A stretch of 62,314 bases of DNA, filler included, from Collodictyon triciliatum (Eukaryota), in assembly GCA_043381765.1 (NCBI GenBank). It is 7 parts of 7 records of this genome, joined end to end, with 100 filler letters (N's around TTAATTAATTAA, not from the genome) between each part and the next. Parts side by side here need not be neighbours in the genome. Positions count along the whole stretch, not along the records: positions 9,676 to 19,244 come from JBHJMP010002960.1; 6 more parts are not named here. One strand, given 5' to 3'. The position numbers and the translations under genes were made by a program. Positions within the stretch are counted from its first letter, which is position 1; the number at the start of each line of letters is the position of its first letter. This document shows, piece after piece, positions 9,576-57,463 of this stretch. The notes under the pieces were generated by a model. It saw only the letters and a program-made list of their open reading frames with translations, did no database searches and was not told the origin of the DNA.

Positions 9576-9675
9576 NNNNNNNNNNNNNNNNNNNNNNNNN
9601 NNNNNNNNNNNNNNNNNNNTTAATTAATTAANNNNNNNNNNNNNNNNNNNNNNNNNNNNNNNNNNNNNNNNNNNN
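9576..9675. other. Artificial scaffold linker (N44-TTAATTAATTAA-N44)
   Basis: 100-bp N spacer with a six-frame stop motif; the same linker recurs six times in the window. Confidence 0.98.
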
Positions 9676-9775
<100 letters not shown>

Positions 9776-10420
9776 GAGGGGAATAAAAAACGTATCGAGC
9801 TTTAGCCATCGACCCACGGGTAGCAAGATTATTATGAATATAGTGCTCAGTATTAGTTGCTCTGATTCATTCATCCACTTCTTTCTTTTCTTTTTTTCTT
9901 TTTCTTCTTTCTCTTTTTTTCTTTTTTTGTTTTTCTTTTTTTGTTTTTCTTTTTTCTTTCTCTTTTCTTTTTTCTTTCTCTTTTCTTTTTTATTCGGTCT
10001 CATTCAGCCTGTAAATGGATAAACTTTATTACATAGGTTGTGACGAACTCGGTTTTATCCCTTTCGAGGCACAACACTTTTTATACAACGAAAGTGTACC
10101 TATATGCATAGCAATTTATTGCACAGACAGCCATCGAATTAGATCTGGATTGACAAAAGCAGGAGCTTTGATGAATCCAAGAAGCAACCTGAATAATATA
10201 ATAGTATAATTCATATATAATAAGGTTAAAACTACTTATTAATCTCATTCTCTTCATGTAATCAATTTTTTTTTATTTTTCATTTATGCAATTTTTTTTA
10301 TTCTTCCTTTCAACTTTTGTGCAGGACCGTGGGATTTTTCATTTATGCAATATTATATTTAAAATTCCAAGATTACAAACAAGCCCTTCCCTTGGCCCAG
10401 TGAAAACCCACCCCATAAAC

Positions 10421-11720
10421 CTGCCACCAAAAATGGACTATAATCCATTTCCATCATATCATTCCCAGCGACACTGTAAGTGGTATCGAATATGACGTCA
10501 AAGTCAATCCAAATAAGTACACTCCATCTCTGATTTACATGAATCGCATTTATGAGGACATTGAAACCAAACTGTTTCAACCAATCTCTATAAGAACTGC
10601 CAATATACCATGTCATATTACTCTAGATACTGCATGTTTGATAGATTTATTGGTATCAACTAGAAAAAAATCATTAATGAAGAATATATCAGGATGCAAA
10701 GAGACCCTATGGGACGAGTTCTTTGAAATGAAGAAAAGAGTCCTTCATCAAAGAGACTACAATTTTAAATACATGATACAAACAGACGGCTTGGCGGTGT
10801 CATTATTGTATGAAAAGAAAGGTATTCCTAATTCAAAAATCCAATAAATTAAAAAAAACCAAAGATTATGTTTATATATATATACTTTCCGAAGAGCATT
10901 TATCTTTATTAGCGAAAAAAATAGCTAGAGTTAGATTGGACGCAGGCAAGTATAATTTGGTTTACACGGTGAGTGAGACAGGTAAGAAATTACGTTACAC
11001 GACACACCAAAGAAGACATGATAGAAAATCTCTTAAAAATCACAAAATACTCTTGCGCGAGAAAAAGAAAGAAAAGTACAATGTTTCAGCGATATACATG
11101 GCAACAGGTTTACAAAGTGTTGTTTCTTTTGGTCTCAGGACTTTTGAAGAGAATCAGCAGTTTGAGACATCAAGAGTGTCTTTAATTGATTTAGAGACGA
11201 AACTGAGTAAACATAATTCATGCACGGTCGATTATGAAAAATTCGAAAATATGTAACTATAAAATCAAGTTACCAGATCTAACTATTCAGATTTTATGAG
11301 CAAGTAACTTTTCGAAAGATGAGATGGAGACAGTATGATAATACAAAAAGAAGTGGACAATTATTTATGGGCCGAATCGAAAAGACATTTGGCAAGGATG
11401 TTGTACTGGCGTATGGAGACTGGAGCAGAAAATCTCCGATGAAACATTCTATGGCAACAATCGGAAGACTATTACGAAAAAAAAATACTATCCAAACGTT
11501 TTGAAATAGTTATTGAAGATGAATTTAGAACCTCCAAGATGTGCTGCAACTGCGAAAAAGAGCTGGAATATATGAAACCGAAAGGAAATTCAAAAACGTG
11601 TTTAGATATCTCATATGTAAAGAATGCAATCGCTCAGAAAGCAAACAAAGTATATTCATGGCAAGGGACTTTAACAGCGCTTATAATATACTCAACCAAG
11701 TTCTTTTAATCCTTCAAAAA
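10421..11720 (+). pseudogene. Fanzor1-like (TnpB-derived) RNA-guided endonuclease, 5'-truncated and frameshifted
   Basis: Joined frames read YDVKVNPNKY...KLFQPISIRTANIPCHITLDT...IQTDGLAVSLL...RLDAGKYNLVY (RuvC-I D at 10939)...RYTTHQRR...LETKLSKHNSCT...FRKMRW...FGKDVVLAYGDWS...EDEFRTSKMCCNC (rearranged RuvC-II E at 11521)...CKEC...RDFNSAYNIL (RuvC-III D at 11667). About four frameshifts and an in-frame TAA at 11280-11282. Confidence 0.88.
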
Positions 11721-11754
11721 ATACATTCACCTTATTCTAAAAAACAAGAAGTGT

Positions 11755-11863
11755 TGGGTCTTTCCTGGCAGCCTTCACCACTACACGACCCCTTTGTGAA
11801 AAAAGTGGTGAGACCTTGGATACTAGCGAACCAGGTTTGCCAATCGAAAGATTGGTATAACCC
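11755..11863 (+). ncRNA. Putative Fanzor omegaRNA scaffold (structured 3' region of the element)
   Basis: Nested stems: GGTC 11757-60/GACC 11812-15; TCACCACT 11775-82/AGTGGTGA 11804-11; CACGA/TTGTG 11784-98; hairpin GCCAATC-GAAA-GATTGGT 11839-56 extended by GGTT/AACC. It lies immediately 3' of RuvC-III, as expected for TnpB/Fanzor. Boundaries uncertain. Confidence 0.6.
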
Positions 11864-12217
11864 TTTTAGTATTCATATAAATAAGAAACTAATAATTCCA
11901 TTCCGTTTGGACAGGCGATTTGCAACGGGTGGCAAAATGCGTGACAGCTTTCCCAAGCGCAACACAGCCGAAAGCGATGCACAATTCTGACAAAAACAAA
12001 AAAAAACAAAAACCATAACAAAACCAAACAAAAAAGCCAAAAAGCCAAAAAACCAAAAACCCAATAAAAAGCCAAAAAACCAAAAACCCAATAAAAACAA
12101 AACAAAACAAAACAAAACAAAACAAAACAATAAACAAAAACAAAACAAAGCAAAAAAACAAAAAAACAAACAAACAAACAAACAAACAACAGCCCAGCGA
12201 GCATCCCCGAGCAAGAG

Positions 12218-13685
12218 ATGCATTCTACCGCGGCCCACCGCCGGCTGCCCGCCCTCACGCGCCAGCGCCATCCCACAAAACCCGCTGCATCACCCACGCT
12301 GCACAGCCAAACACTCGTCGCACCAGACTTTGACGCAGCACAGCGACTCTCCATTTTGCGGCCCACACCCTCCGAGTTCCGTGCTTCAGGCCCACCAAAC
12401 AAACCCGGCCGCCTGAGAACAAACCCCACACATCCACCAAACTCAGCAAGTCCCACAAAGCCTGCAAATCCACCCAATCCCACAAAGCCTGCGAATCCAT
12501 CTAATCCCACAAAGCCTACGAATCCATCCCGCCTTCCGGCCTCGTCAGCTCGCTCGCAGAGGCTGCCAGCGGCAAACCCTGCATCGCATCGCATCAGCAT
12601 CCCAAACACACCAAAATCTGCACGACACAACCGCATTCTGGCCAACGTTTACGGCGTCTCTTTGGACGAGCCAAAGCCCGCCCGCTCGCAGCTCAGCTCA
12701 CGCACAAACTCGGCCCGCATTACCACAAGGATGGGCCTGAGTTCGCGGACCGCGGTACATCCGTCCGACCATGCGGACAGACGGTGCGTCCAGAAAACAT
12801 CGGAAGGGTCGTTGGCATCCGGGCGAATGCAGACGCGGCGCGATTTGCCTGCGCTTCCTTCGATGTCGTCGCGAGTCGCCCCAAAGTCCCAGCGGGATGG
12901 GCTGGTGCGGCCTGCTCTACTTGCTACCCAAACACGCGGGAGAAAGCTGGATCCGATACGGTCCCCGCCCCGTGCAAAGTACGTCTCTGATTTCATCTCC
13001 GCCAGGCGCAACTACGAGCATCAGCAGCATCGGGCCAGAGAAGGCGCTGCTTCGCTGCCGCAGTTGCAAGCTCGTGAAGAGAGGCACACACAGAAGGAAC
13101 TGCCGGGTCAGACAGCAGACAAGAACGAAGATGGTAGAGCAGGTCTGTTGCTGAGTCAAGCATCCAACTCGCTCGCTACAGGGAATGGCCCCTTGGTGTG
13201 TGTCGACATGGAGCGCACTGGAGAGCAGCAGATGGCAAAAACAACAGAAAGTATGAACTACTGCTCGCTTGTTGAATCGGTGGCGAATGACACAGATACA
13301 GAGAATGATGACACGGATGCGTTTGATGATGGAAATGATTCACAAAGTAAATATACCCATAATTGCTGTATACCTGTGTTTACGATGCTATTGGATGCCA
13401 TTCTTTATGTCTATAGTGTACATTTTTCTTGATATGTGAATTTATTAGTTCTATCGATCATTTCTCCATCCATGAATTGTTTAACCATATGTATCGTACA
13501 AACTTGCGTACTATTATATAGTTGGATCACAGAAAATGAAAGAGCACTCCTGGTGGCGTGATTTTATTTACCAAGCTCAGTGTGAACGTGGTATTTTTTT
13601 TCTTATGTTCACTATGCATGTTTAGCATTATGAATTGATACCACTTTATTACCTTAGTACTTTATAATTTTATTTTTATTTATTT

Positions 13686-19244: not shown

Positions 19245-19344
19245 NNNNNNNNNNNNNNNNNNNNNNNNNNNNNNNNNNNNNNNNNNNNTTAATTAATTAA
19301 NNNNNNNNNNNNNNNNNNNNNNNNNNNNNNNNNNNNNNNNNNNN
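19245..19344. other. Artificial scaffold linker
   Basis: N-TTAATTAATTAA-N, 100 bp. Confidence 0.98.
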
Positions 19345-47718: not shown

Positions 47719-47818
47719 NNNNNNNNNNNNNNNNNNNNNNNNNNNNNNNNNNNNNNNNNNNNTTAATTAATTAANNNNNNNNNNNNNNNNNNNNNNNNNN
47801 NNNNNNNNNNNNNNNNNN
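47719..47818. other. Artificial scaffold linker
   Basis: N-TTAATTAATTAA-N, 100 bp. Confidence 0.98.
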
Positions 47819-47997: not shown

Positions 47998-50900
47998 CTA
48001 TTTTGGATGGCCATTTCGACCCTGAGCTTTGCTTTGTGAAACCGAGTATTGTAGCTGCCGGCGCTGAAAATAGTTATCTGCTGTAATGTCACCTCGTTGT
48101 GCACTTAACTTAGATGATTTCGGGTTGTAGGTTTGGATTGTCGCAACCTTCGACCTCCATGGGCCTTCTGGGGTGGGATGGTTGGGTGATTTAGCATCTT
48201 CGGCTCGAGTTTCTGCGTCCGCTCGTTCCTTTTTCTTTTGAAGGAATTTCTGGGCATTCTTGAAAGACTTTTGCGCCTTTTCATCTCCCGGAAATTGTAC
48301 TAATGAACCCCTGTAGCTCGCGAGGTAGTGAGCAGCGTATAATTCTAAAAGCTCACCTTCTTTCGCTTTAGATGGCATGCCTGTGTTTTGGTATAATACG
48401 GGAACATAATCCATATCCAAGCACCCAACAATCCGAATCTTATCTTTGTCAAGGGTATTTTCCACCATCACCAAGAAATATTTTCCCTTTGAAAGCATAT
48501 CAGAATTGTCTGAAAAGCAAGAAATCTCGTTTCTAGAAATCTTAAAGCGTCCATCCCACGCACCGGCGCATCCTTTGATCTCAAAGTAACAGAAAGTATT
48601 CATAGAGTCACTAAATAGGCCCAGCGTATCGCAGATGCAAAAGTCATAACCTTTAGAATTATCAACAGTCGTTCCTTTTGACGGAAAAAATAAGAGCCTG
48701 GAAGAGGAAACCCAGTTATCCAACGGATTGTAAGATACATATTTTGATTTTAGGAACTTATGAAACAATTCTTCAGCTTGGATGCCAGATTCCTGAATTG
48801 AACGAATAAATTAATTAATAAATTAAATTATGATTTAAAAAAAAAAAGAGTCATATCTTAAAATAAGCCCTTGGCCTTAAAATAGTTGCGAAAAGAAACA
48901 GATGAGAAATAGTTATTGATTACTTCGTCTCCTTTGTAAAGAAGCACACGACTAATGTCGTCTACAGGTACGCCTTTAATATCTATGATGGAATCGGTGG
49001 ATAAGTCTCTAAAGGCAACAGTCTCTGAATTTTCGGGACATTCTCTTGTGGTAGGTGCTACACCCGCGCTGGTTGGGCTGATTTCTTCAGACTCCGATTC
49101 TTTTTTATCCTCGTTGTGTTTGAAAGCCTTCGACTGTATTGTTTCTAATACAGCGTTTGTCTCAGTGGATGAATTATCCTCCACTCCTTTATTCCCACCC
49201 AATACGCTAGCGGATTCACCTGTTGCTTTCGTGACCTTCGACTTAGATGTGCGAGGCTCCTGTTTTATATTTTTAAGTTCTAATTAAATCAAAGAATTTT
49301 TAAAATTCTTACCCTGCTAGACCTTTATTTCTAAAAGTAATAAAAATAAAAGTAATAAAAATAAAAGTTTCTGCTTTGATTTCGTACAGGTCTATTTTTT
49401 CCGTCACTGCCTTGCGAGTTGTATTTTGGTTCCGTGTTGAGTTCCTGCAATGGTATTTCGGTGAGGTCTGGTTCCTCCTCTATCAAACTAATCATGTTAT
49501 GTATTTCTAGCTCGGCTTCCTTGAAAATTTCTGCTGTGCTTCGCTCAAAGTTACTGTCACCGGAATCTTCACTAGATACATCCATTCTCATCCATTTTGA
49601 TTCTAGCTCGAAGCTTTCACTTGAAAAAACAACATTTTGCAACGATATTGTCTAGATCAAATAGTTTGAGTATTATGAATTATAATAAAAAAAAATAATC
49701 AGAGTTAAATACAAATGAAGTAGAAAGAAAAACTGTATTAATGAGATAAATTACCTCAATAGGAATTTCTTCAAATTCTCCTTCGAACATGCAATTTTCT
49801 TTGATTAAAGTATATGAAATTTCTTTGGCCTTTGTAGATTCAAATCCTTTGCTTATCAGATATCTAAATACTGCCCGTCTGGCTATAATTTCTTTTCTGG
49901 TTTTATCGTGAATAAATCCTATGGCCAGAACTATGATATCTGAAAAAATGAAGTAGGGGAGCTTACATTCAAAGTTCGAGGCAGTAAGTAACGGTTTTGA
50001 GTGATGTGATAATAAGTTTTGTACAATCACTGAGCTACTGATATAATTGCATGTGTAGATTGACGCATTTTCCAGTCTAGAAAGAATCCTTAGGCGACGG
50101 GATAAATTTTTTTCATGCCTTTCTGAAGCCTTTAAAGGGTGTGTTATCATGAGTTCCAACTCTTCAAGATAAGGAATTTTCATTAATCCAACAATGTAAG
50201 GGTAATTCTTGGACAGGCCATAATGAAGCACATGTTGAATATTGTTAAAGCTAGCTGACTCTTTCGCCCATCTCATTAAAGGAACGCATATCGAAGCCCT
50301 TGTAGTTTCCTTCCTCCAAGAAATAGTGATAGAATCGTCGCATAAGTACAGTGGTATGATTTGGCATAGGTCCGATTTTGTTGCTCCCCTAATTTCTAGC
50401 TTACTACCACAAAATCGGCTTGATGTCTCTCCACCATGATATTTGATCCACTTTTTGATGTTTCTATATACTTCTTTATATGTAGGGTAAATTGATTGTA
50501 AATCTTGTTGTTGATCTGCTAATACATCAAAAGCTTCCTCAGCCATATTCTCTCTTGATTGAGATGAATTTGATTCACTTATTACTTTTTCAATCATTAA
50601 TCGGGTCTGCAATTCAGCATTGAAACAGCTAATTCCTTTTTTACCCTCGAAAGAAATTCCCTCTACAATTTTCTCAATTAGTCCATTCATGTATTCATAG
50701 ACATGAAAAAAGAGAATTCTCCCATGCGGCTTTAAAAAAGCTGGGTTATCACCTCCATAAGAGCAAAACAATGAAAGGTCGTTGTGCATGCCGTGCAAAG
50801 CAACTATGCAATCACTTATCGTTGGTTTGCTCTTACTGCCCAAGATATTAAGGGTGCTTGTTAGTTTCTCATAAGGGTCATCGCGCCTACTTGGTATTAA

Positions 50901-53900
50901 GGTTTTCGATGTATACTTGCATATAGTTGTGAGCGCCTCAGAGTAATCGACAGACCGTGTTATGATATTTTTCAATCGAACAAAGTCTCCTCCATGTTTG
51001 TAAGGAACATCTGGTACGAATATTTCGATATTGCCTATTTCAAGAAAATCTCCTTTATTGCAAGTTCCTGAAGAGGTGACAAAGGCTTGTAATTGAGACA
51101 GCCAATCGATGTATTTCTTTTGGTCTTGTACGTTTCTATCTCTTAGTGATCTGAATATTTTTGAATATAATCCAACTGATTTATCGCACTGAATACCCAT
51201 CAATTTAGCCATATTCTCAATCTTTCTGGGCACTTGAACAGACCAAATGTCTTCATTACATAGAGCTTTTGATACAGCCTCTTCAATTGGCAGAAATATT
51301 GGCTCCTCTCCTTCCAAAGTAACTCTGATGAGTTGCTTTCTCATCCAATATTTTGCACTCGTTTCCATTTTTTGTAACACGTCCTCTAGATCTTCATGAA
51401 ATGGTGTCATAATCTCTAGAGCTGGTATTTTCTGAGGTTCAGGAAGAGGAGTTATAAAGTAAGGTAACTTAACTCCTATCTTAAGTAAGAAAGTCTCCCA
51501 CTTAATGCATTCATTTATATCAATATCTGTATCCGGATTGATCCAAAATGGAGAACAAAATTCTCGAAACTTAGCGTATCCTCTGTTTTGAATCGAAAGA
51601 GACAAAAAAGTGGGTAAAGAGGTCATTTCTGCTGGATTACATTTTGTCCAGCCTAATTTCAGTTTTGTTTTGCTCGAAACTGGAACCAGGATACGAGAAG
51701 TAAAATCACTGTTTCTGGATTGTATTAAAGCGGATACATTTTGATACAGGGGAAAATTCTCCCTTAGAAATTTGAGCTGGCTGCAAATACAACTCGTTTT
51801 TATATTTTCTTTTTTATCAAATATATCCATATGGTGGTAGACTATGTGCTCGACAACTGGTTTTTTCTCCAATCTAATTCCAATCATATCTAAAATGGCT
51901 CTCTCGTCTGATGCACCGTCATCAACCACCAGTATTGTCTCTTCAGAAAACAACAAGACAGAAGCACATTCTATAACATCAGAATCTCTAAGTTTTATCG
52001 ATGACTCGTTTGTCACGTAAACTCTACTTATTCCATGGAGCGATATTCGATCTTCCGTGAAAACTAATTGTCCCTCCGATTGTTGAAGGGTGATAAACAA
52101 AGGATAATTCTTCAAAGATTCCATGAAATCCAGGGGCTTGTTTCTCGATTCTTCCAGAATCAAAGAAAACAATATTTTCCACCACTCTTTATTACTCTTT
52201 TGTTTCTTTAATAGTCCCTGTCGTTTTCCACTTGGTTTGTGTTGTAAACATTCAAGTACATGAATTACACTTAGTTCAGGAAGGCACTGCAGTAGGTCTT
52301 TAGGTATCACTTTGACATCCTCTCCAGGTATAGGCTTGTCGTGATACAGAATGATTTTTTTGATATCTTTTAATTGAGACGGTTTAATAAGTGATGCTAT
52401 TGTTTCACTGTATTGGTGAGGTGAGTACACATCTTTACTTAATAAATTGGACGCGTTTTTCTTGTACCAATCTTTTATTTCCAACACAAATTCTTTCCAC
52501 CAAGGTGACATTTCACTTGTAGTTGACGGGAAATAACTACTGAAGTTTTCTTTAAGATAATCGCTGCGTTCGAGGGACAGTATGAACAAGTTATAAACTT
52601 CATTCCTAATGAATTTATTAAACTCGTTTTCTCTCACCGATTCTCTGTTCGTCACTAAAATCCAATCAGATTGTATGGCAAAAGGCAATCCTATATCCAT
52701 AACAGGCAAGAAAGCGAATATTGGATTGGATCTTTTTTCTGACTTTGAAGTTGAATTCTTTGGGAACATCAAAGATACCACTGCCCTCTTACTTCCCGAT
52801 CTTGATGGCTCTGAATCTACTATATAAGAGGGTAAGTCAACATGGCGACTAACAAAAAGAAATTCTGAATTCTTTTTGTGGGTTATTTTCAGTTTGATAT
52901 CTTCTACAGCTTCCTGAATTACTATATCTTTGAATAGTAATTTTGCAACTTCAGAACTATCACCGGCATCTGAATTTATGGGCAATACTACTTCAAATTG
53001 TGAACTGGATAAAAAAGAATACTTTGCTACAAATTCATGTGACTGAATCTCTATTGTGTGTAACTTATTCAAAAATACCAGAGTCAGGGGGTCAAATTTC
53101 TGCTTAATTGAATCAAAAAAATCCGATCTCTTGAAGCGTTCTTTTAATGGTAAAAAAATGATTGTATTCTCTGGATATTGAGACAGAATGTCGTCCAACT
53201 CTGGATTTAATGAATCAAGCCAGTGTGGTGTTACATATGAATCTACTTCATCTTTTCCTTTCTTAAAGCAGAATCTCCAGTCTCTCGATACGATGGTTGG
53301 ATTTTCAGTAATTGCAAAGACTGACTTGAAACCGAGTCCTTTCTGACCAATCGAAATTCCTCCTTCTTTTGTACTTTGTGAAAGGCTGCAGAGAGATAAA
53401 ACATTTTTCGCAGAGAATCCTTTTTCATTGTTGATGAATGCGATATAGTCATGTCTGAACCTCAATACAAGCCCGGGTTTGATGTCGTATTCGTACTCGT
53501 TGTCGTCACAATTTTGAATTATTTCGTTTATGAAATGTGCAGGTGAGGAATACAGCTCACTTCCTAGGTGCTTTAGAGAACCACATACTGATTTCCTCAT
53601 ATTTCTAAGCATGACACGCCGTTTCTGTATTCTTACAGTAAAATCCTTTGCTAAATGCAAGCTTGAAGAAACATTTATCTCAGACATTACTCTAGTTAAC
53701 TCAGAGTCTTCAAAGTCATCGCAGTCAAATTCATTTTTTGCGTCAGAGACGTCTGGGAATTTTAATGAAATTTGATCAGGAGAATTACTACGTAAAATTT
53801 CCAAATCCAATCTCCTGTAACTTTTCAGGGATTCCTCAACTTCCTTTATCTTTTCCTCCGCTTGTATTCTCATGTGCACTTCATTTGAGTAAATTTCATT

Positions 53901-56900
53901 CGACTTGCTTAGTTTTTTCTTGAGAAGTTCGATTTCTTTTTTCAGCCCATCAATTTCAGATTCCTTAGCTTCGATTTCTGACTTGTTTTCCTTAATAATA
54001 TCATTCTTCAGCTCTAGGTTTCGATTGGCTTCCTCTAGAGAGAGAGTTAGATATTCTTCATTACATTCCCGCGTTTCTTTGGCATATGATTTATTTCCTT
54101 TAAACCACGCCGTTTGATGTGTTTTTGTCGTCTTTTTTGCTTCTGTACCAAGAAACTGTAGTCTAGATCGGAAGACACGATTTCTAAAATGTAGGTATCG
54201 AAGGTCGTGTTCATTTTTCTCCAGTGATGCTGAATTCGCATCTTCAACACTTATATTGTCATTTTCTTCTTTCTCAATCAATGATACATTTTGGACTCTT
54301 TTTAATTGAATAATGTTGGAACTTTTCTTCGGAATTTTATCAATACTGGGGAGTATATCATCGTCAAATTCACCGCTATCGTGCCCATCATCACTATCAG
54401 AAGTCTCTGATGATGAATCATCCTCGGTATCTTTGAATCTATTATCATTAATGTGTAGTAATCCTACGTAAAGTTCACTAGGAAAAATGGTTTTTGCGAT
54501 AAATTCTCTGGCAATTAACTCTTTCTTAAAATCTAGTACGCTGTTCATAAGAGTATGTCTGAACTTGCGAATGAGAGCTTTTGATTCAAAAGGGCCTACA
54601 GATATTAGGGATACTAAAAGTTTGCATGCAAATAATGAAAAAGCCACTCTAATTTTTTTAATCATAATTTTGTAATCTTGTACAAGCGTCACGGAATAGG
54701 CTCTAAGTCTGATGAGTTCTTCTATATTAGATTCTCCCTGAGACGCTATTTGGTCCGTATATCCATTTTCTTCACTCTCGTTTGACTCTTTGCTTTCTTC
54801 TTCATCTCTACTATCTTCGGATATTTTTTGTGATTGGTTCCCAATATCTGTTTCCATATTTTCATCATCACTATCTCCATCAAGTCTTCGTGCTCTTGGT
54901 ATTTCATCACGCGTCAATATATCATGACTCCACATATCTTCAGCGTCTTCGGTCTGAGGTACTCTATACATACACTCGTAACCAGATAATGTTGAGCGTT
55001 GTATTACGTTAAAGCATAGTGTGGTGTCCTCGGCTCCAAAAAATATGCAAGTATGTGGGTAAGTTGAAAAAAGCTTGCTTATGGTGGCTAAATTAATCTT
55101 TTTCTTTGACTCAAATCCAAAAAAGGAAAACAAGACTTCGCTGATGGAGGATGACATGGACCTTGATTGATGTGAATTTGTATTGAATCTGTCAATCATT
55201 TCCAGGAAAAATACCATATAGCGAGAAAGGCCCTTCCATATCGATTCTATTAGAGATATTTCTTTGTGAGGGCGCTGAGTGTATTTACTGCGAAAAAAAT
55301 AGTTGTTTAACTCAATCATCTTTTTTGTATATGTGACACTATCAGCGTCCATTATCATTTCGACAAAAACGAGTCCTTGCATACTAAACACGTGGGGTAA
55401 ATTTGGAGCAAAAAGCTGATATATTAACTTATAAAGGGCATTCGAACTGGAAAATGCCATATGTCGAAAAATTGGATGAGATAAAATTTCTCTTAGGCAC
55501 CAACACAGATCCAAAATGTTAGATATCAGAGTGTCTTTTGTTGGGTCCTCACTCCCACCAAGAAATTCTTGTTCTTTTTTTGGAACGATTCTTGTATGCT
55601 TTGATAAAGTCCATCTGCTGATTCCTCCCTCAAGAAATTGGTTGGAACTTTTTTTAAGCTCCTCTTCCGAAGGAAAGTTCGCAATAAATTCCTGTCAATA
55701 AACGAATTTTTACGTTAGTATGTAATATTGTAATGTACGCGAAGATATTGCGATATACGAGAGATAGTATATCATGCGCCTATATTTTTTATGACTACAA
55801 AGTTACCTCGACATTTTTCATGACACACTCGCAAATGTCATCAACGACTTGAATATGGTTGTTTAATATAATATATCTCAATTTGTTTTTGGAATCCTTC
55901 GGTAGTCGCTGGAATATTTTTTCAAAATAATTGACAAACTCCTCAGTATAAATATTCCAGCACGGGGCATCCGGTTTAATGGCATAACTGATTGTTTGAG
56001 GTAAATTGTTCGATATATTTTCATGTCGATAAATGTGTGTCGACGTTATCAGATCGAAATTTCTAGGAACTCCAAAATCCGGTTTTCTTTTGAGAGTTTT
56101 CATTTGATGCGGGAAAAAGGTTGGTATAATCTTTGACTTGACAATATTCTTGACTAAATCGAAAAAAGGAATAAAAAATTCGTCAATTTTAGAAAACATA
56201 TCAGTATTCCATTGTAGTAACTTGCCCAAAAATTTTTCGTCGTAGAGGGTTGCTGTTTCAATTAGATGGACGTCTTTTTTAAGTTCAATCAATTTCCCGT
56301 AGAATTTATCCAAAAAGAAACTAATACTTTTCAAGTGTATTTTTGCATTCATGGTGTGCTCTGAGCGCTTTAGGACACTGAGGCGTGAATCAACAGACTT
56401 CGATAAAATGGTATGCATGGGTACCAAGACAAGGTCACTTATGGCCAAGACTCGAGGTTGTATGAAACAGCGATCACTCATCAAAATGATGTACCGGTGC
56501 GGAAGCTAGAGGAGATTTACACAGAATGAGCAAAAGTAGAATAGAAACTAGTGGTTCGATTAGAACTAACAACTGCTTTTGAAATATTTTGAGTATTTTT
56601 TTGATAAAATAGTGTCTATTGCCCCACTTTTCCATATTAGTTCTTTTAGAAATGGTCAATTCAAACTTTACATATAAACATAAATTATTACATACCAAGG
56701 TCTCGTCGTTGTAAGAGAAATTACTATATAATATAAGATCCAGCAGTTCGGTGTAAAAAGCATCAAAGTCGGAGAAGGTTGGTGAGTTGGAATCTCTTTC
56801 TGTTTCATGGATAAATCTCTGAACCTCACGCTCCCACACGTCCGAAAATATGCTTGTCTCATGTAAATCGGGGGAAACTGAATAACTAGTCTCATTTTGA

Positions 56901-57181
56901 CTTTTTGCTTCAAATTTGACCTGAATAACCTCTGGGCGCAAGGTTAAGTCGTCGGTATTTTCATGCTCCGCTTGCAAGGAAGTATGTGCATCCTCTATCA
57001 CTTTTTTTACTGAACGGAAGAACCGGTCTGCAAAATACATGTCAGTGCTAATACCGGTACAAATGATAGTGACTTTTGGATGTTTTAAATCACTCCATGA
57101 GAATTCTGATGCCGTTGATTCTGTCACATCTGAGTAGCCTTCCATCCCAACACAAAAAGACGGTGATTCTTTCTCTTTGTC
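47998..57181 (-). CDS. Giant (about 2,900 aa) sacsin/NO VEIN-like GHKL ATPase with C-terminal DUF3883-like PD-(D/E)XK nuclease domain
   Basis: ELYSSPAHFINEIIQNCDDNEY, NNEKGFSAKNVLSLCSLSQSTK, IGQKGLGFKSVF, FAFLPV...GLPFAIQSDWILVTNRE (sacsin/NOV ATPase module); last exon GYDF...YFEIKG...FKISRNE (DUF3883 pattern); coiled coil preceding the ATPase. Confidence 0.85.
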
Positions 57182-57363: not shown

Positions 57364-57463
57364 NNNNNNNNNNNNNNNNNNNNNNNNNNNNNNNNNNNNN
57401 NNNNNNNTTAATTAATTAANNNNNNNNNNNNNNNNNNNNNNNNNNNNNNNNNNNNNNNNNNNN
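57364..57463. other. Artificial scaffold linker
   Basis: N-TTAATTAATTAA-N, 100 bp. Confidence 0.98.

Follow-up and report, generated by a model that had tools for sequence, protein, structure and literature searches.

Results

A broken coding sequence among cellular genes

The window, by which we mean the whole 62,314-nucleotide stretch of Collodictyon triciliatum DNA that was analysed, holds a single decayed Fanzor1 coding sequence at positions 10425-11747 of the plus strand. It is contained in five stop-to-stop frames of that strand (10419-10847, 10777-11256, 11283-11504, 11443-11709 and 11529-11990) that cover the open reading frames from which the initial annotation had assembled a nuclease relic in five reading-frame segments. 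All five frames are real but when the in-frame TAA stops are counted the coding sequence consists of six segments. Segment 1 (10425-10847, frame 0) encodes the end of the REC domain and the WED domain with its TDG motif, segment 2 (10852-11238, frame 1) encodes RuvC-I and the subsequent helices, and segment 3 (11238-11282, frame 0) terminates at the TAA at 11280-11282. The RuvC core strand with the motif YGDWS lies in segment 4 (11283-11476, frame 0), the RuvC-II glutamate and the first CxxC in segment 5 (11479-11586, frame 1) and the second CxxC and RuvC-III in segment 6 (11589-11747, frame 0). The coding sequence is preceded by a T-rich stretch (10259-10424, plus strand) with stops at 10401 and 10416 and no match to the family profile described below.

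The window resembles nuclear eukaryotic DNA, with frames belonging to cellular genes that include histone H2A, a tubulin-tyrosine ligase, a clathrin adaptor, a mitochondrial carrier and myo-inositol-1-phosphate synthase, along with pieces of sacsin, MIB/HERC2, RyR-domain and PI3K-C2 genes. A 2004-residue frame with a sacsin domain lies within 47998-57181 on the minus strand with further open frames on its flanks, one of which has a weak match to the NO VEIN C-terminal family that falls below the cut-off; the region is probably one giant sacsin-like gene. Directly 3' of the relic the sequence at 11990-13430 is GC-richer and of low complexity, with A/C-rich short repeats, no Pfam match and long open frames (432 and 260 residues) that overlap and occupy both strands. 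At 10038-10115 on the plus strand the Rfam C/D-box snoRNA model ceN70 scored 22.9 bits against a gathering threshold of 65 (E 0.059), which is probably a chance match.

Six identical 100-base spacers (9576-9675, 19245-19344, 28904-29003, 38062-38161, 47719-47818 and 57364-57463), each composed of 44 N, TTAATTAATTAA and 44 N, divide the window into blocks of 9058-9569 bases, and simple repeats flank most of them on one or both sides. They look like artificial joins because TTAATTAATTAA gives stops in all six frames, and the blocks may be non-neighbours in the genome. Runs of N also occur inside blocks at 27355-27887 (533 bases) and 30978-31317 (340 bases), and these are ordinary gaps or masked stretches.

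Homology and family assignment

An exhaustive phmmer search of 1.84 billion representative proteins with the peptide of segment 2 (piece 2, 10867-11253) returned 35 proteins at E <= 0.001, 7 of them at E <= 1e-10; these relatives are given P numbers below. The longer ones (11 of the 35) were chosen for a profile HMM of 629 positions, which was then searched against the 2795 six-frame peptides of 12 or more residues in the 62 kb window. Exactly five window peptides matched, in collinear order over profile positions 199-598 of the 629 and at E-values from 1e-46 to 2e-10, while the next best peptide reached only E 0.81. The individual matches were 10419-10844 in segment 1 (profile 199-334, E 1.2e-46), 10777-11253 in segment 2 (342-444, E 5.3e-28), 11283-11501 in segment 4 (458-521, E 3.1e-24), 11443-11706 in segment 5 (520-556, E 2.4e-10) and 11529-11987 in segment 6 (551-598, E 3.3e-11). 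The match of piece 2 is circular since this piece was the search query, and as piece 2 alone had found the relatives the other four pieces serve as independent tests. As a sequence comparison the five-piece collinear match is far beyond chance. Segment 3 was recovered by tblastn with the relatives, those of P0005, P0009, P0011, P0012, P0017 and P0021 beginning in its frame at 11238. With the six pieces joined and an X placed at each break, positions 1-435 of the resulting 440 aligned to an intact viral open reading frame (locus L001) at 38% identity and E 4e-93. All tblastn matches of the 35 relatives fall within 10272-11732 on the plus strand and the window therefore holds one Fanzor1 copy.

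Searched against the PDB, the profile retrieved three Fanzor1 structures, SpuFz1 (E 3.4e-73), PpFz1 (E 1.9e-65) and GtFz1 (E 6.9e-48), followed in fourth place by LaTranC at E 0.21, and no Fanzor2 or TnpB chain appeared at E 1 or better. The 634-residue relative P0009 behaved in the same way, with all three of its PDB matches at E <= 0.01 being Fanzor1 (SpuFz1 at 9.2e-37 over residues 14-607, PpFz1 at 7.2e-34 and GtFz1 at 7e-16). Direct searches with the window pieces are weak, and the assignment to Fanzor1 is thus a transitive step through the relatives. Piece 2 had no PDB match at E <= 10, and a word-based protein search for longer proteins gave 567 candidates with none at E <= 0.01. The segment 5 piece weakly matched residues 1156-1183 of the Parasitella parasitica Fanzor1 (PpFz1, 9cf0; E 0.024) and the segment 4 piece, again weakly, matched residues 1095-1137 of the same chain (E 0.36), the two matches being collinear. 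In Pfam the five pieces matched only PF07282 (Cas12f1-like TNB), on 11443-11709 and below its cut-off (E 0.0027, 18.2 bits against 26.3); this family was found in 5 of the 13 relatives scanned out of the 35, and above the cut-off in 1. PDB matches of 11586-11765 were rejected as zinc-finger noise only, and RecA matches of piece 4 were disregarded because they arise from concatenated RecA chains. The initial annotation had identified a Fanzor1 relic, and this is borne out since Fanzor1 proteins are the only solved structures that the profile matching all pieces hits at E below 0.2. Its statement that no ORF-based annotator would call the gene is likewise supported.

Conserved motifs and catalytic residues

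Every motif reported by the initial annotation was found in its place when the coordinates were read off the window. The TDG of the WED domain is at 10782-10790, where QTDG (10779-10790) aligns with iqTDG of the profile, and LDAGK of RuvC-I is at 10936-10950 with its aspartate at 10939-10941 and aligns with DPGK of the profile. An alanine thus replaces the proline of the RuvC-I DPG in the window copy, as it does in P0003, P0006 and P0013. A 35-residue insertion in segment 2 after RuvC-I (11077-11181), common to P0001-P0005 and P0010 and absent in P0009, is by alignment specific to the close subfamily. YGDWS (11412-11426), which is conserved in the profile, stands at what we take to be the position of the canonical TnpB RuvC-II glutamate. 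The alternative RuvC-II glutamate (11521-11523) lies instead in DEFRTSK (11518-11538), six residues ahead of the first CxxC (E-FRTSKM-CCNC, 11521-11553), and the zinc finger formed by CCNC (11542-11553) and CKEC (11616-11627) is followed by RDFNSA of RuvC-III (11664-11681) with its aspartate at 11667-11669. Both the double CxxC finger and the RuvC-III aspartate are thus present in the copy. All of these motifs are on the plus strand.

Both the TDG motif, described as specific to Fanzor1, and the alternative glutamate six residues before CxxC (ExxxxxxCxxC) are reported by Yoon et al. (PMC10711439), and the alternative RuvC-II glutamate is also described by Jiang et al. (PMC10530073). Saito et al. 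2023 (PMC10432273) identify D383, E541 and D606 of SpuFz1, together with N385, as metal ligands. Once the 394-residue offset of the MBP-fusion chain is taken into account, the alignment of P0009 to SpuFz1 places the D-E-D ligands on the aspartate of DPG, the glutamate of NEFRTSK and the aspartate of TRDLNS. Through this transitive alignment via P0009 and the profile the aspartate at 10939-10941, the glutamate at 11521-11523 and the aspartate at 11667-11669 of the window correspond to SpuFz1 D383, E541 and D606, so that the triad proposed in the initial annotation does align with RuvC-I, RuvC-II and RuvC-III.

Lesions, truncation and the possibility of introns

The coding sequence is interrupted by two in-frame TAA stops and four frame changes, all on the plus strand. 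The first TAA (10845-10847) closes segment 1 and is followed by a change from frame 0 to frame 1 in an A8 run (10851-10858), after which the reading returns to frame 0 in an A5 run (11237-11241) where P0005 and P0004 are uninterrupted. The second TAA (11280-11282) closes segment 3. A third change, again from frame 0 to frame 1, falls in an A9 run (11477-11485), and the fourth, back to frame 0 at 11587-11588, lies between KPKG and FKNV and not in a long homopolymer. Small indels, several in A-runs, had been described by the initial annotation and agree with the four frame changes of which three are in A-runs; the two in-frame stops were missing from its account. Three of the changes are in A-runs, and the sequencing runs compared did not include one from the same organism (best word share 0.12); assembly error is therefore possible at these sites and may explain the three A-run frame changes. 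That the two TAA codons are read as sense under another genetic code is unlikely, since the cellular genes of the window give long domain-complete frames under the standard code, and such a code would in any case leave the frame changes standing.

Profile positions 1-198 have no counterpart in any frame of the window in the six-frame profile search, which means that about the first third of the protein is missing from the copy. Neither the profile nor tblastn gave reliable Fanzor homology upstream of about 10425; a tblastn extension of P0007 reached 10308 but shared few residues upstream of about 10430 and crossed two more stops. The long N-terminal region on which the initial annotation had relied is accordingly not present, the first 198 of the 629 profile positions being gone from the window copy. 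The missing part is a truncation of this copy, full-length relatives possessing an enlarged REC domain and N-terminus.

We considered whether the breaks could be very short spliceosomal introns combined with homopolymer assembly errors in a live Fanzor1 gene whose N-terminus is encoded by an upstream exon. GT-AG intervals of 43 nt (10822-10864) and 38 nt (11253-11290) do bridge two of the breaks in the right phase, three of the frame changes are contained in A-runs and introns are frequent in eukaryotic Fanzor genes as reported by Jiang et al. (PMC10530073). However, the first interval is coded through by P0007, P0013 and P0006 and the second by P0004 and P0005, with residues that align with the letters of the window, and because the relatives read straight across both intervals we rejected the two introns. 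The stops at 10845 and 11280 are moreover inside coding sequence aligned to relatives, no window peptide matches profile positions 1-198 and the fourth frame change is outside long homopolymers. A live gene of this kind is therefore highly improbable. Since the reading changes frame four times, meets two in-frame stops and is short of about 200 N-terminal residues, the copy would be unable to make the protein and, as far as its sequence can tell, is dead; 10425-11747 is very probably a non-functional, front-truncated Fanzor1 gene copy.

A dispersed repeat family

Contigs of four sequencing runs (X1-X4) were placed on the window at 80% likeness or more. None of the runs carries half of the sampled words of the window stretch, the best share being 0.12. 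On 10259-11850 we found 298 contigs from X1 and 330 from X2 at 80-100% likeness, and 10 and 72 contigs were placed from X3 and X4, respectively. In X1 and X2 the contigs of the family range from at least 99% down to less than 90% likeness. This picture looks like a dispersed, diverged multi-copy family in related organisms, and judging from the contigs the family is abundant in at least two of them. At 11280 contigs of all four runs differ from the window, and other letters are also read at 10401-10402. Four letters at 11477 are omitted in most contigs (5 in X1, 9 in X2 and 1 each in X3 and X4) and a single letter is missing at 10852 from one X1 contig and one X2 contig. As the contigs lack them, several of the lesions are private to the window copy or to a minority of copies.

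The protein relatives give a similar impression of fragmentation. P0001-P0006, the highest in the exhaustive search, are 50-79% identical to the query and together with P0013 are fragments of 68-209 residues, all of which except P0003 were looked up and lie on contigs of 500-845 nt. P0007 has 291 residues and lies on an 11.1 kb contig. P0013 is partly read in the window's frame 2 and is therefore a broken copy too, and no full-length close relative was seen among the relatives from the protein collection.

Some contigs skip internal parts of the element and rejoin at 11752 or at 11799-11801, and they resemble deletion derivatives in which the 3' tail is preserved. This tail (11752-11857, plus strand) is common to the repeat family, whose depth reaches about 11850, and may be a candidate right end or the remnant of a guide-RNA scaffold. 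It folds as three hairpins and recalls the three-stemmed Fanzor1 RNAs described by Yoon et al. (PMC10711439), with the qualification that the fold is not significant since its z-score is only -1.64 and is equalled by 11 of 200 shuffles. A search for Rfam families in 11752-11857 found none. At the other end, a deep stretch at 10259-10376 was rejected as an element end as it is T-rich and matches other low-complexity places of the window; its T-rich core makes the very high X1 and X2 depth there probably promiscuous. Within 9676-12400 neither terminal inverted repeats nor a target-site duplication was found, the only pairs being of low complexity, so that the window copy is no more than a putative mobile element.

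Giant-virus relatives

Genes resembling P0009 are present on four IMG/VR giant-virus contigs at 80-88% identity and on one more at 49%. An alignment scan of the viral collection gave 389 pattern matches of which 305 encode a relative, and the best 80 of these 305 were kept, yielding 78 loci. Across 84 loci (L001-L084) 83 frames of at least 300 residues match the profile at E <= 1e-20, at least 71 of them distinct and 492-699 residues long. The nearest full-length relatives of the relic are intact open reading frames on giant-virus metagenome contigs with 35-40% identity over its whole length. The initial annotation had suggested that intact copies may exist in this genome or in its viruses; intact relatives do occur on giant-virus contigs, but at 35-40% identity only. 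P0007 was not found in the viral contigs; a weak match to it in metagenome locus L006 (31 residues, 42% identity) was not used. Some of the viral contigs or bins carry two intact Fanzor1 genes of this clade (L062 with L079 on one contig, L021 with L043 and L019 with L061), and this pairing suggests mobility within viral genomes.

A quick maximum-likelihood tree was built from 81 rows, namely the read-through of the window, 71 viral sequences and a choice of 9 P proteins, and did not include the remaining 26 P hits, most of which are short. In it the window groups with P0007 and P0004 (support 97) in a cluster which joins a group of L001, L002, L008, P0009 and P0021 with weak support (80% SH-aLRT), and the remaining 68 viral rows with P0016, P0019 and P0020 make up a separate group of 71 rows (98). 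The tree is unrooted and contains no Fanzor1 from a named eukaryote, and the direction of transfer is therefore unreadable from it. Within its group the end branch of the window is the longest (1.44 against 0.58 and 0.81), and with six lesions, the truncation and this branch the fairly recent inactivation proposed by the initial annotation is doubtful.

These affinities raise the question as to whether the relic is what is left of an integrated giant virus, that is an endogenous viral element, instead of a copy of a host-resident transposon. All 71 of 71 distinct full-length relatives recovered as DNA, from the best 80 of 305 kept, sit on IMG/VR giant-virus contigs, the relic is richer in AT than the window as a whole (GC 0.333 and 0.398) and a preprint describes Fanzor1 elements that an endogenous giant virus and the alga hosting it have in common (bioRxiv 10.1101/2024.09.03.611062). 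The viral bias is however partly one of sampling because the DNA scans covered viral and prokaryote collections only. The relic has no adjoining viral gene and lies in the same block as the tubulin-tyrosine ligase gene in a window of ordinary cellular genes, and the diverged contigs, of which X1 and X2 each have hundreds, resemble a dispersed repeat family. The window family is also a separate branch that is not nested among the viral rows, and its close relative P0007 was not recovered from viral contigs. We consider a viral integrant improbable and favour a decayed copy belonging to a repeat family.

Discussion

Fanzor1 is the TnpB relative of eukaryotes and giant viruses. This RuvC nuclease takes up an RNA transcribed at the 3' end of the mobile element that encodes it and cuts DNA matching the guide of that RNA. 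Dead Fanzor1 copies are common in eukaryote genomes. The window copy retains the WED domain, RuvC-I and RuvC-III, the helical insert, the zinc finger and the rearranged RuvC-II glutamate and has lost about 200 N-terminal residues including most of REC. It is one decayed member of a repeat family on a branch of its own whose nearest neighbours are giant-virus metagenome Fanzor1 genes. The searches establish the homology, the family assignment, the lesions and the multi-copy relatives, and we infer that the copy descends from an active RNA-guided nuclease carried by a mobile element.

Much of this is already in print, namely the Fanzor1 family itself, its rearranged active site, the multi-copy decay products and the presence in giant viruses. 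The relic is useful as annotation, as ORF-based callers would miss it, and is an extra data point on the traffic of elements between giant viruses and hosts. It also points to a high-copy Fanzor1 family marked by an insertion specific to the subfamily, any intact members of which could be tested as compact genome editors. A bolder reading, to which we give well under an even chance, is that the family constitutes an undescribed Fanzor1 lineage with hundreds of copies in a group of freshwater eukaryotes, sister to a Fanzor1 group of giant viruses, with virus-host exchange and possibly live copies. The marks of such a lineage would be DAG in place of DPG in part of its members, the 35-residue insertion and ghost-like derivatives with a three-hairpin tail of roughly 100 nt, and if true it would provide a fresh case of RNA-guided nuclease exchange between giant viruses and their hosts.

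Comparison with known systems

Among the solved Fanzor1 proteins SpuFz1 of Spizellomyces punctatus (PDB 8gkh) gives the strongest match, the family profile aligning over positions 4-608 at E 3.4e-73. The two share the places of the D-E-D triad, the TDG of the WED domain, GDW at the putative old RuvC-II place, the glutamate six residues ahead of CxxC and the double CxxC finger. Unlike SpuFz1, the window copy is dead, has lost the N-terminal third, reads DAG instead of DPN at RuvC-I and carries the 35-residue insertion after it. The two sequences share little identity, piece 2 gave no direct match in the PDB and 30-nt inverted repeats like those of SpuFz1 were not found at the window copy. SpuFz1 is also described as multi-copy, with partial copies and ORF-less 'ghost' derivatives (PMC10432273).

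The giant-virus Fanzor1 genes (L001-L084) are intact open reading frames on viral contigs, whereas the window copy is broken, lies among cellular genes and sits on a separate long branch. Another parallel is the endogenous giant virus of Chlamydomonas and its host (bioRxiv 10.1101/2024.09.03.611062), for which the preprint reports a Fanzor1 fragment on a host chromosome that is related to virus-borne families, along with Fanzor-only and degraded derivatives. There, however, a known viral family matches the host fragment at 80% DNA identity and a Tc1/Mariner transposase is part of the full elements, while for the window relic neither a close viral copy nor a transposase was found.

Fanzor2 and the TnpB proteins of IS607 and IS605 share the RuvC fold and the zinc finger with the window relic, and the rearranged glutamate is also reported in Fanzor2 and some TnpBs (PMC10711439, PMC10530073). 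What sets the window family apart from them is the size of its full-length relatives, at about 600-760 residues with a REC domain of the Fanzor1 type, and the TDG motif that the relic carries and that has been described as Fanzor1-specific (PMC10711439).
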